Numbered from the stretch's first letter, positions 13,778-24,980 are shown. The stretch: DNA of 24,980 nucleotides from Alphaproteobacteria bacterium (GCA_030746635.1 JASLMH010000067.1:1-24980), one strand, 5' to 3'. Numbers and translations: made by a program. Notes: generated from the sequence alone by a model not told the origin.

Positions 13778-14512
13778 TTACCTTGACCGATCGGGGGCGG
13801 CGAGAAATCGCAGCAGCCAGGCGGCCATTTCGTCCTCGTGGGTCGGTTGCGCCAGGCTATCCAGGGCATTGTCGACGATAGCCCGGCCGAATTGGTCGCG
13901 CCGCATGGCGTAGAGGTCGGCGGCGAACGCCTTGGTCATTTCCGGATGGCCCTGCAAGGCGACGATGTTGTCGCCGAGCTGGAACAGGCCATAGGGGCAG
14001 AAATCGCTACCGGCCAACAACTCGGCGCCGTCCGGCAGCCGCGTCACCTGATCCTGGTGCGATGCCAGCAAGGCGATTTCGTCCAACGCCGGCGTCATCC
14101 AGTCGCGCCGTCGGCCGACCTGGTAGCTATGGACACCGATACCCCAGCCCCGCGACGAACGTTCGACGGCGCCGCCGAAGGCCTGGGCGACGAGCTGGTG
14201 ACCGAAGCAGATGCCGACGACGGGCCGCGCCTCGGCCGCCGCCCGCGCGAAGGCGGCCAAATCGGCGATCCAGGGATCGTCGTCGAAGGCGCTGTAACGA
14301 CTGCCGGTGATCAACCAGCCGTCGCAGGCCGAGACCGACGCGGGCAACTCGCCCAGGTAGCTGCGGTAGACCCGGAAGGCCGGCTGTTCGTCGCCCCGGC
14401 CGAGGAAGCGCCGGCAGGCATCGGCGAAGCTGCCGTGGCGGGCGGCCAGTTGCTCGGCCACCGCCCCCGCCTCCAGGATACCGATGGTGATCGGCGACGG
14501 AGGAGGCGCCAT
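13778..14512 (-). CDS. Class I glutamine amidotransferase-like protein.
   Basis: Nucleophile elbow GICFGHQL and catalytic LQGHPE. Begins MAPPPSPITIGILEAG. The upstream part of the 436-aa track ORF overlaps the next gene and was rejected. Confidence 0.75.
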   Translation of the reverse strand: MAPPPSPITIGILEAGAVAEQLAARHGSFADACRRFLGRGDEQPAFRVYRSYLGELPASVSACDGWLITGSRYSAFDDDPWIADLAAFARAAAEARPVVGICFGHQLVAQAFGGAVERSSRGWGIGVHSYQVGRRRDWMTPALDEIALLASHQDQVTRLPDGAELLAGSDFCPYGLFQLGDNIVALQGHPEMTKAFAADLYAMRRDQFGRAIVDNALDSLAQPTHEDEMAAWLLRFLAAPDRSR

Positions 14513-19433: not shown

Positions 19434-20696
19434 CTACGCCGCCGACGCGGCGCGGCGGCGGGTCCAGCGGCCGCAGATCCATCCCGCCAGCAACAAGACA
19501 ACGACGGTGGCGAGGAAATACCCGGCAAGGGTCGATCGGCTATGGCGGGTGATCAGGTTCTCGCTGACCCGGCTGTCAAACGCCATCCCGACCTGGAGGT
19601 TGGCTTCGACCTGTTCTTTTGACGCGGCGGGCCAGGGGTAGCCGGACGATCGCAAGATATTGCCGAAGTATTTCTCGACGATTTGGTTCTCCCGGTAGGC
19701 CCTGGTGTAGCGCATACGGCGCACGTCCGCGTCCTTGGCCTCGCGCGCCAGTTCAAGATTGCTGTCGCGGCTGAAGAGATGCACCCGCGCCTCGTGCAGG
19801 AAGGGATCGGTGCCGGGGCCATGAATCAACAGAAACTCCCGGTATTTCTCGATTTGCCTGTATTGATCAACGATCCGCCCGACTTCGCTTGCCCGCCGGC
19901 GGTCCAGTCGACTGAGTTCTTCAACGGTAAATCGGGAACGGAACACCCCAATATCCGGGTCACGGTGCAAATGCCCGTATTCGACCATGATGCCGGACCC
20001 CGCGGGCACGATGTCGAGCAGCGGAAAACGCTGGGTGTACCAGGCGATACGGTCCGGCGTATTGAGATAGCAAAGGCCCAGATAGGCGACGCCCGCGGCG
20101 GCACCGAGACACAGCCGACGCAGCCCCCGGCCGTCCGGCCAGCCGACAATCATCTTCGGCCGGATGCCCGCGGCCAGGGCCAGTTGGACCAAGGCGATCG
20201 CCAGCAGATTCAGCCCAATGTCGCGGGCATCGAAGTACCTCTTGGGTGTCAGCCATTGAATGGTCTCATCCAGCATGCCGACCATGGCGCCAACAATGGC
20301 AGCCGCGACATAGATGCTGTAGTCGCGAATACGGCAGGCCAGGGCGCGGAAGATCAACACGCCGAGGGGCCCGTATTCCAGGAAATGGATGGCTTCCTCG
20401 GGACTGCCCGACCCCAGACCGAAGGTCAGATAGATGAAGGCCAAGGTGACGGCGAACAGCCATGCATAGCCGACGGTCGATGTCTGCGCCCGGGTCAATA
20501 GACGGGCCAGGATCGCCACCGCCAGCACCACCACCACGGCGATCACCGTGTAGGTGTAGGTCTCGCGCCCCCAGGCCGCGTTGATTTGTTCGGTGATGCC
20601 GCGCACGAAGGGAATGGTCAGGAAAATGATCCCCGCCCAGAGGGCGACCTGCACCCAGCAGACCCATTCGCGCTGTCGCGGTGGTTGGTCGAACAT
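19434..20696 (-). CDS. VanZ-like domain membrane protein with an additional about 200-aa extramembrane domain and a C-terminal TM anchor.
   Basis: VanZ signature region GMLDETIQWLTPKRYFDARDIGLNLLAIALV after 3-4 TM helices. Start MFDQPP at ATG 20696, with GGAGGGAGG immediately upstream. The stop lies 17 nt before the phosphoesterase start. Confidence 0.7.
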   Translation of the reverse strand: MFDQPPRQREWVCWVQVALWAGIIFLTIPFVRGITEQINAAWGRETYTYTVIAVVVVLAVAILARLLTRAQTSTVGYAWLFAVTLAFIYLTFGLGSGSPEEAIHFLEYGPLGVLIFRALACRIRDYSIYVAAAIVGAMVGMLDETIQWLTPKRYFDARDIGLNLLAIALVQLALAAGIRPKMIVGWPDGRGLRRLCLGAAAGVAYLGLCYLNTPDRIAWYTQRFPLLDIVPAGSGIMVEYGHLHRDPDIGVFRSRFTVEELSRLDRRRASEVGRIVDQYRQIEKYREFLLIHGPGTDPFLHEARVHLFSRDSNLELAREAKDADVRRMRYTRAYRENQIVEKYFGNILRSSGYPWPAASKEQVEANLQVGMAFDSRVSENLITRHSRSTLAGYFLATVVVLLLAGWICGRWTRRRAASAA

Positions 20697-20870
20697 CCTC
20701 CCTCCAACCTCGTTTTCCACCGGTGCGGAAGCGAATCCCTTGAACGCCAGAGTTTACCGCCGGCAACTCCAGCAGGGTAGCAGCCAGCCTGAAAATGCGC
20801 CTATCATCCGTGGCGAGACGGGCCATGCCCGTCGCACCCTGTTGCCTTCAACGAATTCAGCGGATCTCCC

Positions 20871-21464
20871 ATGCCCAGATCGACAGGCTTCCTCGCAGTA
20901 TCGTTGCTTCTGATGGCCCTATGGTCAGCGCCCGCCGGCGCGGCCGACGTCCACCAGCTCGCCCCGGCCGAACCGCAGCCCGACGCCAAGAGCCTGAAAC
21001 CGGGCCTTGCGGTCGAGTACGTCTACCGGGAGGCCAAGTCCCTGCACGATGCCGAGAGCTACCGCGGCTACAACCTGGAAAGCCGGGGCGAACCGTTGAA
21101 GGGGTTCGTCTATGGCGACACCAACCCGGGCGACGGGGCACTCACGTCGGGGGCCAGCGAACTGGTGATCGCCTACATCAAGGGCTACATGCGGTTCGAG
21201 GCAGGCCAGCACGAGCTGGAGTTCCAATCGAACGACGGGCTTCGCGTCATCCTCGGCGGCGTTCAGGTGTACGAGCACGACCTGCGCCACCCGTGCGTGA
21301 GCAACGGCGCGGTGACGGTGAAGGCACCGCAGGCCGGCTGGTATCCGGTCGAGGCGCTCTACTTCCAGCGTCTGGGCACCTCCTGCCTGGATCTCAGCAT
21401 CCGGCGGCCGGGCGGCGAATGGGATTGGACCGAGCCCGAGATCTACGCCCACCTGCCGGGCTGA
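20871..21464 (+). CDS. Secreted hypothetical protein (Sec signal peptide; possibly a beta-sandwich/PA14-like fold).
   Basis: Signal peptide MPRSTGFLAVSLLLMALWSAPAGAA. No strong SD. Divergent from the VanZ-like gene. Confidence 0.55.
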   Translation: MPRSTGFLAVSLLLMALWSAPAGAADVHQLAPAEPQPDAKSLKPGLAVEYVYREAKSLHDAESYRGYNLESRGEPLKGFVYGDTNPGDGALTSGASELVIAYIKGYMRFEAGQHELEFQSNDGLRVILGGVQVYEHDLRHPCVSNGAVTVKAPQAGWYPVEALYFQRLGTSCLDLSIRRPGGEWDWTEPEIYAHLPG

Positions 21465-22301: not shown

Positions 22302-22934
22302 CTACTTGGTGCCGTACAGCCGGTCGCCGGCATCGCCCAGGCCCGGCAGGATGTAGCCGATGTCGTTGAGTTGCCGGTCGATGGCGGCGGTCAGGATCGG
22401 CACGTCGGGATGGGCCGCGCCGAACGCTTCGATGCCCTCGGGCGCGGCGACCAGGGCGACGAACTTGATCCGTCGGGCGCCGGCCTCCTTCAGGCGGTGC
22501 ACGGCCGCGGCGGCCGAATTGCCCGTCGCCAGCATCGGATCGACGACGATCACCAGCCGCTCGCCGATATCCTCGGGCAGCTTCAGATAATATTCCACCG
22601 CCTCCAGGGTGTCGTGGTCGCGATACAGGCCGATATGGCCGACCCGGGCCGAGGGGATCAGGTCAAGCATCCCCTCCAACAGGCCGTTGCCGGCCCGCAG
22701 CACCGAGACCAGGCAGAGTTTCTTGCCGGCCAGGGCCGGCGCCCGCATGGTCTCCAATGGCGTGGCGATCTCCACCTCTTCGAGGTCGAGATCGCGGGTC
22801 GCCTCGAACGCCAGCAACAGGCTGATCTCGCGCAGCAACTGCCGGAACTCGGCGGTCGAGGTCTCGACCCGGCGCAACAGCGTCAATTTGTGCTGAATCA
22901 GAGGGTGGTCGGCCACCGTTGCCTTCGCCGCCAT
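22302..22934 (-). CDS. upp: Uracil phosphoribosyltransferase.
   Basis: [72 protein letters not shown]. Confidence 0.9.
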
Positions 22935-23014
22935 TTGCGCTGCCTCCCGTCAATTCGCCTCCCACCGAGTTTAACGCGGGCAGCAGCCGGGGCAATGGCC
23001 GGGAAGAAAGGACC

Positions 23015-23680
23015 TCAGACTTGGCGCAGCCGGTTTCGACGGACCCTGTACAGGCCCATCAGACCGGCCAGTAGCGTCGCCAGCGGCGCCGGCTCGGGTA
23101 TCACCAGGGTGCCGCTGACCTGGATCGAATAGGTCCGGGGGTTGGTGTCCCAGACCGTACCGGCGAAGAAGGCGCCGCCGTTCAGATCGTCTATGCTGCC
23201 CTTGAATTCCCCATCCAGCCGGGCCTGGGTGATCGGCTCCCAGGGCCAGTCATGGTTGTTGATGGTCTCGCCACCGTCACTGAAGGCGATCGACGGCTGG
23301 GTCGGTTCCGGGTACCACCAGGCAATGATGTCGTCGGTCTCGACCGTGATCGGACTGGCCAGGGCAAAGGTGTTGACCCCCAGGCTGTTCACCGCCTCCA
23401 AGCCGCTCTCGCCGACGAAATCCCAATTCGCGCCGTTATCGCGATAGATCAGCAGTTTCACCTCGCCGCCGGTGGCGTTGGCGTAGATACTCCAGGAATC
23501 GATCTCGCCGTTGCCGCTGATGCGGCCGTTCAGGTCGAAGAACAGAACGCCGTCGGCGCCGTCCAAGTAGGGCCGGGCAATTACGTCGTTGCCGCCCAGG
23601 ATGGTCGAGGCCAGCGCCGGAACCGGTTGAACCAATAGGGCGAGAGCGACAAGCACCGCCCGTGTACGATGAAAAGTCAT
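23015..23680 (-). CDS. PEP-CTERM sorting-domain protein (predicted exosortase substrate) with an N-terminal signal peptide.
   Basis: Start MTFHRTRAVLVALALLVQPVPALA (AGGAGGGAG upstream). C-terminus …VIPEPAPLATLLAGLMGLYRVRRNRLRQV is PEP, then a hydrophobic helix, then an Arg-rich tail. The upstream TTG extension of the track ORF was rejected. Confidence 0.75.
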   Translation of the reverse strand: MTFHRTRAVLVALALLVQPVPALASTILGGNDVIARPYLDGADGVLFFDLNGRISGNGEIDSWSIYANATGGEVKLLIYRDNGANWDFVGESGLEAVNSLGVNTFALASPITVETDDIIAWWYPEPTQPSIAFSDGGETINNHDWPWEPITQARLDGEFKGSIDDLNGGAFFAGTVWDTNPRTYSIQVSGTLVIPEPAPLATLLAGLMGLYRVRRNRLRQV

Positions 23681-23769
23681 CGACAACACTCCCTCCTTGC
23701 CGATCGGGTCTCTCGACGCATTTCGCGATTCAACGCACCTGCGACCTGCCGCCGGTTTTCTTGTCCATA

Positions 23770-23792
23770 ACCATGCAAGTTTTGTGCCAACC
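23770..23792 (-). promoter_or_regulatory. Sigma-54 (RpoN) -24/-12 promoter driving the PEP-CTERM gene.
   Basis: The minus strand reads TTGGCACAAAACTTGCATG, a perfect TGGCAC-N5-TTGCA, about 90 nt upstream of the ATG at 23680. Confidence 0.6.
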
Positions 23793-23993
23793 AAGAAGCT
23801 TGGGGAAAATCAATGGCTTACACCCGGGCCATCACGGCAAGAACAGGGAATCTGTAAAAACCACCGACACTACTGGTGACTCTTCGGCCATCGGCGCCCG
23901 TTTCGGGAAACTTGCCTGGCAGCCTGAGCCCGGCCTAGGCTCGCCTCCGGACGATGCCCCAGGGGCACGAGATGACAATGGGAGAGCCGAGGC

Positions 23994-24647
23994 ATGGTGG
24001 AAATCAGCTATCCGGCGGACTGGCGCGATATACCGCCCGAAAACTGGTCCAAGATGCGCATGACACCCGAAGCATACACGGCGATGCGGGACGAGCGGCT
24101 GCGACGGGAGGCGGCGGCGCCGGCGGTGGGCGACCCGGCGCCCGATTTCCATCTGGAACGGCTGTCGCCCGAAGGTCGGCGCACGGGCCAAATGTTCCGC
24201 CTGTCCGAAGGGCGGGGCCGGCCCATCGCCCTGGTCTTCGGCTCCTATACCTGACCGCCTTTCCGCATTCAGGCCGTGCGCCTGAACGAGATCGCCGCCA
24301 CCTACCGGGAACAAGTGGATTTCTATTGCGTCTATATCCAGGAGGCACATCCGGACGATGGCTGGCAGGTGCAGCACAACATCGACGACGGCATCATCCA
24401 CGACCGGCCGACCAGCATCGAACAACGCGCCGAACTGGCGGAAGTCTGCGCCCTGCGCCTGAACATGAAAATGCCGATGCTGCTCGACGACATGAGCGAC
24501 CAGGCGGATCGCCTGTATAACGCCCTGCCGGAACGGCTGTACCTGATCGACGCGGATGGCGTCGTTCGGTTCAAGACGGTGGCGGGGTCGATGGGCTTCG
24601 ATCCGGAAGCCTGGACCGCGGCAATTGCCGCCCTGATCAAAGGTTAG
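23994..24647 (+). CDS. Iodothyronine deiodinase-family thioredoxin-fold protein with an in-frame TGA (24252-24254) at the active-site position. Candidate selenoprotein (Sec). The track splits it into ORFs 23994..24254 and 24276..24647.
   Basis: Both track ORFs are in the same frame, 21 nt apart. Read-through gives …RPIALVFGSYT-U-PPFRIQAVRLNEIAATYREQVDFYCVYIQEAHPDDGWQV…LYNALPERLYLIDADGVVRFKT. This matches deiodinase motifs (FGSCTUPPF…VIYIEEAHASDGW…LYAALPERLYII…). Conservation continues through the 21 nt between the two ORFs. Confidence 0.6.
24268..24286 (+). other. Candidate bacterial SECIS-like hairpin 13 nt downstream of the in-frame UGA.
   Basis: UUCAGGC-CGUGC-GCCUGAA. 7-bp stem, 5-nt loop containing GU, with the loop about 21-25 nt after the UGA. 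Confidence 0.35.
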
Positions 24648-24650
24648 CCG

Positions 24651-24839
24651 TCAGGGACGGTCGTTCCGTAGGCGGATCAAACTGCCGATCAGGCGCACCA
24701 GGAGTGACTTGGCGGACCCATCGTCGTAGTCCCAATCCCCTCCGTCGCAATCGTCCAGCATGAACAGCAGCGCCTTGTCGCCATGGCGGTCGACGTAATC
24801 GCGGGCGGTGTGCGCCAGGTCGGCATCGTCGGCGGTCAT
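24651..24839 (-). CDS. Small acidic hypothetical protein (62 aa), sigma-54-dependent.
   Basis: Start MTADDADLAHTARDYVDRHGDK with GGAGG 8 nt upstream. The track ORF extends to the window end, but that extension overlaps the promoter. Confidence 0.45.
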   Translation of the reverse strand: MTADDADLAHTARDYVDRHGDKALLFMLDDCDGGDWDYDDGSAKSLLVRLIGSLIRLRNDRP

Positions 24840-24959
24840 GGCCTCACGCCTCCGCGAAGGCGCCGGACGGGCGGGTCCGATACCTGAAATCGGTTGGATC
24901 GTCGTTGAAAAAAGCCATCTGGCCGGAATTCCCAAGATTGCACCAACAACTTGCCGAAT

Positions 24960-24980
24960 GCCGTGCAAGAGCCGTGCCAA
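24960..24980 (-). promoter_or_regulatory. Sigma-54 -24/-12 promoter upstream of the 62-aa gene.
   Basis: The minus strand reads TTGGCACGGCTCTTGCACGG, a perfect TGGCAC-N5-TTGCA. It lies at the window edge, about 120 nt upstream of the ATG at 24839. Confidence 0.55.

Follow-up and report, generated by a model that had tools for sequence, protein, structure and literature searches.

The element TGGCACAAAACTTGCA on the minus strand of the window, as the whole analysed stretch of 24,980 bases is called here, is very probably a real sigma-54 promoter, accompanied by an upstream activator site and a DNA-bending site as judged from their sequences. We consider it likely, and hold with some confidence, that these elements together make up an entire enhancer-dependent promoter, of the PEP-CTERM box type known from the literature, situated 5' of a PEP-CTERM gene. 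A control region of this kind was already described in 2006, and the present one is a clean but ordinary example. The modest additions made here are the fixed position of the IHF site and the phasing of the box along the helix, a further promoter built in the same way that precedes an orphan 62-aa protein, and a jelly-roll cargo family that lies outside Pfam and NCBIfam.

The core promoter

The core promoter and the start site predicted from it are located as follows.

23774-23789, minus strand: sigma-54 core promoter TGGCACAAAACTTGCA, with the -24 element TGGCAC at 23784-23789 and the -12 element TTGCA at 23774-23778
23761-23765, minus strand: predicted transcription start, at about 23763, placed 12 nt past the C of the GC

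On the minus strand the DNA reads TTGGCACAAAACTTGCATGG, in which TGGCAC (23789-23784), the spacer AAAAC (23783-23779) and TTGCA (23778-23774) follow one another. An earlier note on this DNA had reported an exact RpoN -24/-12 consensus within 23765-23795, with GG and GC at the correct spacing and in a position to transcribe the gene whose ATG is at 23680. This description holds. The core is an exact match to TGGCAC-N5-TTGCW, its GG (23788-23787) and GC (23776-23775) have the canonical spacing, and the ATG (23680-23678) lies 93 nt downstream on the same strand. Sigma-54 promoters initiate transcription about 12 nt downstream of the GC, a geometry that would place the start near 23763.

Two matches to the pattern TGGCACNNNNNTTGCW are present in the window, where 0.04 are expected; a count of two was reached in 0 of 100 dinucleotide shuffles, and the expectation from base composition is 0.019 per window. 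Each of them occupies intergenic DNA on the minus strand, 5' of a minus-strand ORF. The matrix scan that the earlier note had called for returned the flagged site and the second promoter as the two best sites of the window, with 18.8 and 18.9 bits for the two matches and 14.1 bits for the next site, which is intragenic. The matrix used is rough, its frequencies being based on the Barrios 1999 consensus. A search of 22900-24980 for a sigma-70-like promoter found none.

The predicted IHF site and activator box

Upstream of the core, three further elements were recognised, all within the 313-nt intergenic region (23681-23993) that holds the whole module.

23808-23820, plus strand: predicted IHF site AATCAATGGCTTA, an exact match to the consensus WATCAANNNNTTR, reading TAAGCCATTGATT on the gene strand, at about -57 to -45
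23853-23869, minus strand: motif 1 or PEP-CTERM box TGTCGGTGGTTTTTACA, the predicted PrsR site, at about -106 to -90
23901-23917, plus strand: possible weak second motif 1, inverted, TTTCGGGAAACTTGCCT, 31 nt upstream of the main box

The predicted IHF site, for which TAAGCCATTGATT is the reverse complement of AATCAATGGCTTA, falls between the activator box and the core promoter. The -24/-12 element begins 17 nt past ATTGATTT, the conserved 3' block of this site, and the gap from the box to ATTGATTT amounts to 38 nt. The box itself is a 17-nt TGT-N11-ACA dyad ending in TTTACA, separated from the sigma-54 element by a spacer of 62-63 nt. Neither the box nor the IHF site figured in the earlier note, and their presence strengthens its sigma-54 reading. 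For the composite of box, IHF site and sigma-54 element, about 1e-11 chance occurrences are expected per window.

The box was scored with two matrices. In a 19-site matrix derived from unrelated genome loci, the seeds of which were partly picked by resemblance, TGTCGGTGGTTTTTACA is the best match of the window with 16.7 bits (runner-up 10.7), and the chance of a score of at least 16.7 bits is 7.8e-7 per position. It is again the top of the window, with 15.3 bits, in a 12-locus matrix whose loci were picked by their downstream PEP-CTERM ORF. This second matrix and a leave-one-out test, described below, reduce the bias of seed choice without removing it. The two best motif-1 matches in the overlapping sequence L001 are the following.

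L001 9812-9828: box of the PEP-CTERM gene promoter, 16.8 bits (19-site matrix) and 15.4 bits (12-site matrix)
L001 8623-8639: box of the second promoter, 18.7 bits (19-site matrix) and 17.9 bits (12-site matrix)

Since the motif-1 logo is published as a figure only, the match to it rests on the text description and on the rebuilt matrix. The element TTTCGGGAAACTTGCCT obtains the second-best motif-1 score of the window with the PEP-defined matrix (10.1 bits; 8.7 bits with the 19-site matrix) and is tentatively regarded as a second copy of motif 1; Haft et al. (2006, PMC1569441) describe motif 1 as sometimes repeated.

The PEP-CTERM gene and its product

The gene downstream of the promoter, its leader and the parts of its product are listed below.

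23015-23680, minus strand: PEP-CTERM protein gene, 221 aa, comprising a signal peptide, a jelly-roll domain and a sorting tail
23681-23760, minus strand: 5' untranslated leader, about 83 nt long, in which AAGGAGG (23692-23698) is the Shine-Dalgarno sequence
aa 1-24: Sec signal peptide MTFHRTRAVLVALALLVQPVPALA/S (...PALA/S), assigned by inspection and seen as an N-terminal helix in the structure model
aa ~25-192: beta-sandwich jelly-roll domain, a predicted fold
aa 194-217, 23030-23101, minus strand: PEP-CTERM sorting tail VIPEPAPLATLLAGLMGLYRVRRNR

The assignment of this gene to the PEP-CTERM proteins, already made in the earlier note, is supported by its tail. TIGR02595 aligns to VIPEPAPLATLLAGLMGLYRVRRNR over 24/24 model positions and gives 20.7 bits for the tail alone, whereas the whole protein, at 14.9 bits, stays just below the cutoff of 16. 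Ten NCBIfam PEP-CTERM family models match the protein at the tail only, and the sorting signal is canonical by eye. The homologues P0002 and P0003 end in a similar PEP-CTERM tail, and a further homologue, P0004, has lost it.

A Pfam search of the 221-aa protein returned no domain. The predicted fold of the cargo is a jelly roll like those of CBM32, discoidin and PHR domains, and the protein may be viewed as a candidate matrix-binding protein. An exhaustive HMMER search yielded 277 cluster representatives at E <= 1e-3; the domain family that they represent has no model in Pfam or NCBIfam. By a strict rule, a PEP-CTERM tail ends 33 of the 67 listed members of 170-260 aa, and more of them when VPxP-type variants are counted. 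The cargo domain has the conserved motifs GGN...DSW...IYR...WWYP...NPRTYSI (P0002-P0152) and occurs either alone with a PEP-CTERM tail or as one module of larger proteins, the longest of 2,337 aa.

The 221-aa ORF is intact and identical in six assemblies from different samples and has a coding-type GC3. An identical protein is encoded on contig JASLQL010000140.1 (MAG GCA_030744475.1) and on TARA Oceans, JGI and Logan contigs. The longest ORF (TTG 23794, 259 aa) would engulf the promoter; it was rejected as the gene because homologues align from the signal peptide onward only and the gene callers choose ATG 23680. The fold of the 5' leader is unremarkable (z = -0.49). An Rfam scan of the whole window returned no family, and hence no riboswitch or known RNA in the leader of either promoter. 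Between the PEP-CTERM gene and upp, 80 nt downstream, a terminator was sought and none was found, so that read-through into upp could occur.

The second promoter and its 62-aa ORF

The second exact match to the core pattern lies at the edge of the window, and its upstream elements were located in L001.

24964-24979, minus strand: second sigma-54 core TGGCACGGCTCTTGCA, at the window edge, 1.2 kb from the PEP-CTERM promoter
L001 8661-8673 and 8623-8639: IHF site and motif 1 of the second promoter, 28-78 nt past the window end
24651-24839, minus strand: 62-aa acidic orphan ORF, found 125 nt past the second promoter; it lacks both a signal peptide and a PEP-CTERM tail

In an alignment, the blocks of the second promoter (L001 8623-8717) correspond one by one to those of the PEP-CTERM promoter, and the functional blocks alone are shared: TGTCGGT...TTACA-ATTC, 37-38 nt, TAAG-YY-ATTGATTT, 17 nt and TTGGCAC-N5-CTTGCA, at the same spacing in both. 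The spacer sequences of the two promoters differ, so that a recent duplication is rejected. The 62-aa ORF has a GC content by codon position of 0.70/0.41/0.81, resembling that of the real genes of the window. It matches no entry in Pfam or NCBIfam, and a search among 5.8 billion proteins found no homologue outside its own species. The ORF is probably a non-PEP-CTERM member of the same regulon. Its end is separated by 3 nt from a convergent gene, the probable selenoprotein gene described in the next section, so a 62-aa ORF transcript that is not terminated would be antisense to that gene.

Genomic neighbourhood

The window (record positions 19245-44224), L001 and L138 together cover about 40 kb of the 87.5-kb contig, namely record positions 12977-52924. 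Within this interval, none of rpoN, prsK (TIGR02916), prsR (TIGR02915), prsT (TIGR02917), ihfA/B and an exosortase gene was found. The neighbours are ordinary metabolic genes, including upp and genes for an isochorismatase family member, an amidase, ABC transport and a hydantoinase. The absence of an exosortase from the window, stated previously, thus applies to about 40 kb of the contig, and the proposal of a dispersed regulon fits the lack of exosortase, prsK/prsR and rpoN in that interval as well as the second promoter of the same design 1.2 kb away.

The convergent gene at 23994-24647 on the plus strand encodes a deiodinase-like thioredoxin-fold protein and contains an in-frame TGA (24252-24254) within FGSYT-U-PPF. 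When this TGA is translated as Cys, the product hits Pfam T4_deiodinase at 4.5e-25, and from its sequence the gene probably encodes a selenoprotein. Gene callers split it into ORFs of 86 aa and 123/126 aa in 6/6 assemblies. About 12 nt past the TGA, the centroid fold has a perfect 7-bp hairpin, UUCAGGC-CGUGC-GCCUGAA, which could, as a modelled structure, be a bacterial SECIS element; the region of this candidate folds no better than shuffled sequence (z = -0.12). At a distance of about 2-3 kb from the PEP-CTERM gene, a gene for a small secreted PA14-domain protein (20871-21464, plus strand) is divergent from that for a 428-aa VanZ-like membrane protein (19434-20720, minus strand). The matrix scan found no sigma-54 motif before the PA14 or the VanZ-like gene.

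Conservation among homologous loci

Six same-species contigs are identical across the promoter region and are therefore uninformative on its conservation. A search for related loci with a 9-sequence alignment returned four loci. One homologous locus, L012, which comes from an organism of 52% GC and was found again as L137, has a box, TGTCAGGATATTATACA, that scores 17.4 bits and is the best of that locus. The IHF element is also kept there, as TAACCCATTGATT, and so are the 17-nt gap and a core that reads GGGCTT-N5-TTGCATGGTT, while the DNA between these elements and their flanks has diverged. The PEP-CTERM promoter, the second promoter and L012 thus agree in placing the IHF element 17 nt from TGGCAC. 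Between box and IHF element, L012 has 27 nt, one turn less than the window.

The gene that follows (L012 9709-10471; L137 174-537) is the closest proteobacterial homologue. It is split over two frames and is without the C-terminal third, including the sorting tail. The apparent frameshift and truncation are seen in two independent assemblies, and the homologue may be a recent pseudogene. Elsewhere in L012, a sigma-54-like site TGGCTCGTTCCTTGCT of 15.1 bits (14252-14267, plus strand) lies just 5' of a Gcw_chp (PF09694) gene.

Five more distant homologues (L007, L008, L013, L134 and L136) have hosts of 41-63% GC. The DNA upstream of the genes in L007, L008-L011, L013, L134 and L136 was found to contain no sigma-54 core, box or IHF site. 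Conservation of the promoter across the protein family was accordingly rejected, the module being common only to the window and L012/L137. Control by the module is thus specific to a lineage and not to the protein family, which fits the restriction of the module given in PMC1569441.

Distribution of the IHF and sigma-54 pattern

One genome per species, 596 Gb of sequence, was scanned with the pattern ATTGATTT-N16-18-TGGCAC-N5-TTGCW. At least 120 loci (L014-L133) were found, against about 26 chance matches estimated from the number of specified bases. The full IHF consensus, with YAA in place, is completed in 90/120 (75%) of the matches listed, where about 3% would be expected; most of the listed loci sit before flagellar, regulatory or other genes, in many Proteobacteria. 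On the strength of these 90 loci, sigma-54 promoters appear to have, as a general design, an IHF site held in a fixed place beside the -24 element, as far as can be read from such patterns.

Among the matches listed, about 20 loci carry TGTCGGnAAnnnTTTACA upstream, and all of these belong to Alpha-, Beta- or Gammaproteobacteria. The sole criterion for sorting the loci was the presence or absence of a PEP-CTERM tail at the end of the downstream ORF. Among the matches listed, motif 1 is present in 12/12 loci with a PEP-CTERM ORF versus 8/107 others (Fisher p = 1.3e-11). With leave-one-out matrices, again for the matches listed, the figures are 11/12 versus 8/107 (p = 8e-10). Four of the eight box-bearing loci in the second group are on truncated contigs, and others have variant tails.

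The gap from the box to ATTGATTT falls, among the matches listed, into classes of 26/27, 36-38 and 48 nt, which are about one helical turn (~10.5 nt) apart (L016, L018, L036, L044, L056, L066, L082, L083, L087, L101, L107, L108 and L122). Such discrete classes point to helical phasing, in which the activator must occupy a particular face of the helix. The locus L104, where a box-like site lies 5' of a gene for a GAFTGA activator, was considered as a candidate PrsR gene and set aside, since the fragment matches NtrC, FlbD, NifA and PrsR models about equally and is therefore uninformative.

A more far-reaching interpretation, which we find conceivable though somewhat short of probable, is that the PEP-CTERM box region is, across Alpha-, Beta- and Gammaproteobacteria, a rigid module of three parts and not just the pair of motifs reported in 2006. 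The IHF site would keep a fixed place 16-18 nt before the -24 element, with the PrsR box held on one helix face, 26/27, 36-38 or 48 nt from the IHF site. The same module would here also drive the orphan 62-aa acidic cytoplasmic protein, with a transcript that, if unterminated, is antisense to the gene of the deiodinase-like selenoprotein. If this interpretation is true, the exosortase regulon would reach past cargo proteins.

Proposed mechanism and alternative explanations

For the mechanism of the PEP-CTERM promoter, we infer which proteins bind, where transcription starts and that the genome contains rpoN, prsK/R, ihf and exosortase genes. Sigma-54 RNA polymerase would form a closed complex on TGGCAC-N5-TTGCA at 23774-23789. 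PrsK kinase would phosphorylate an activator of the NtrC family, most likely PrsR, and the phosphorylated PrsR would oligomerise on the TGT-N11-ACA box TGTCGGTGGTTTTTACA at about -100. IHF bound at AATCAATGGCTTA, at about -50, is predicted to bend the DNA so that the activator contacts the polymerase. PrsR would then remodel the sigma-54 holoenzyme and open the promoter at the expense of ATP hydrolysis, with transcription starting near 23763. The mRNA would have a leader of about 83 nt with the ribosome site AAGGAGG and would code for a Sec-exported jelly-roll protein resembling carbohydrate-binding modules. After export, an exosortase whose gene lies elsewhere would cleave the PEP-CTERM tail, and the PEP-CTERM gene would represent a dispersed member of an exosortase/exopolysaccharide regulon.

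A genuine sigma-54 promoter may also be present whose box serves a different enhancer-binding protein in place of PrsR, for instance a lineage-specific activator that resembles NtrC or NifA and recognises TGT-N11-ACA. TGT-N-ACA dyads are used by other members of this family, NifA binding TGT-N10-ACA; the second promoter drives a protein without a PEP-CTERM tail, and no prsR lies near the gene in the ~40 kb of contig. In addition, the assignment of motif 1 to PrsR derives from a phylogenetic profile and is backed by one DAP-chip study in a deltaproteobacterium. A different activator is nevertheless unlikely, as the box accompanies PEP-CTERM genes in 11-12 of the 12 independent alpha-, beta- and gammaproteobacterial loci listed and conforms to the length, ending and spacing given in PMC1569441, in which a few sites before non-PEP-CTERM genes are reported too.

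The promoter of the PEP-CTERM box type could alternatively be a relic, in which the elements are intact while the exosortase, PrsK/PrsR or RpoN has been lost, so that the promoter is silent or the protein unsorted. The L012/L137 homologue, apparently frameshifted and truncated with its promoter elements kept, would agree with such decay, as would P0004 without its tail and the ~40 kb without partner genes. Two perfect cores with perfect IHF sites and strong boxes are, however, unlikely to last unselected in a genome of 65% GC, and the ORF is intact, identical across six assemblies and of coding-type GC3; we thus regard a relic as quite improbable. Still less credible is a functionless chance match to sigma-54 in AT-rich intergenic DNA. 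A single exact 11-base match is possible somewhere in a multi-megabase genome, but the window has two, against an expectation of 0.02-0.04, and both lie between genes in the correct orientation. Upstream of each core there is an IHF consensus, at exactly 17 nt, and beyond it motif 1 at a further 37-38 nt; the elements are conserved in another organism (L012), and chance would yield the composite about 1e-11 times per window.

The promoter of the PEP-CTERM box type that we favour would extend the sigma-54/PrsR scheme for exosortase substrates to an uncultured marine alphaproteobacterium, known from TARA and JGI ocean metagenomes. Base-level coordinates are now at hand for the predicted activator, IHF and polymerase sites, which makes them directly testable. 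The fixed IHF position and the phasing of the box refine the scheme in a small way and could make genome-wide predictions of PEP-CTERM regulons more precise. As a whole, the promoter finding is a well-supported annotation that leaves current understanding unchanged.

Comparison with known systems

The layout of upstream activator site, IHF site and sigma-54 core is that of the nifH promoter, where NifA binds a TGT-N10-ACA site, and Caulobacter flagellar promoters combine ftr elements with IHF and sigma-54. The present promoter shares with these classical promoters the dyad at about -100, the IHF bend at about -50 and the -24/-12 core. It differs from nifH-type promoters in the N11 of its dyad, in contrast to N10, in the box TGTCGG...TTTACA and in the PEP-CTERM genes downstream.

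The closest counterparts are the regions described by Haft et al. (2006, BMC Biol 4:29; PMC1569441). There, 99 of 167 proteobacterial PEP-CTERM genes are preceded by motif 1 and a sigma-54 motif. Motif 1 is 17 nt long, ends in TTTACA and is the predicted site of PrsR; it is followed by a spacer of 62.8 +/- 10.6 nt and then by a 17-nt sigma-54 motif located 71 +/- 38.5 nt before the start codon. The non-coding upstream regions are large (>200 nt), a few extra sites precede genes without PEP-CTERM tails, and the DNA motif had a phylogenetic profile like that of PrsK, PrsR and PrsT. Only Proteobacteria have the module, and only some of their PEP-CTERM genes carry it. The region studied here agrees in its 17-nt box with the TTTACA end, the 62-63 nt spacer, the 93 nt to the ATG, the 313-nt intergenic region, the leader of about 70-90 nt and the position of the PEP-CTERM gene away from an exosortase locus. 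As in that article, an additional site is found 5' of a gene without a PEP-CTERM tail. The earlier note's statement that PEP-CTERM genes are frequently controlled by the sigma-54-dependent PrsK/PrsR system is thus in line with published work, which the box, spacer and ATG distance of the window fit. Two differences concern detail: the available text of PMC1569441 makes no mention of an IHF site, which is here an exact consensus fixed 17 nt from the -24 element, and it gives the mean and range of the spacer only, whereas in the loci listed here the distance from box to IHF site is quantised in steps of about 10.5 nt.

In the case of pepA of Aquincola tertiaricarbonis RN12 (PMC9850573), dependence on RpoN1 was reported and the start site was mapped just downstream of TGGCAC/CTGCTT. 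Both pepA and the present gene are structural genes of PEP-CTERM proteins with a TGGCAC -24 element and a predicted upstream enhancer, the RpoN dependence being experimental for pepA. The -12 element is CTGCTT in pepA and the consensus TTGCA here, and the host is a betaproteobacterium in the former case in contrast to an alphaproteobacterium in the latter. The two cargo proteins are unrelated, the tail alone of the present protein matching floc_PepA with 17.8 bits against a cutoff of 80.
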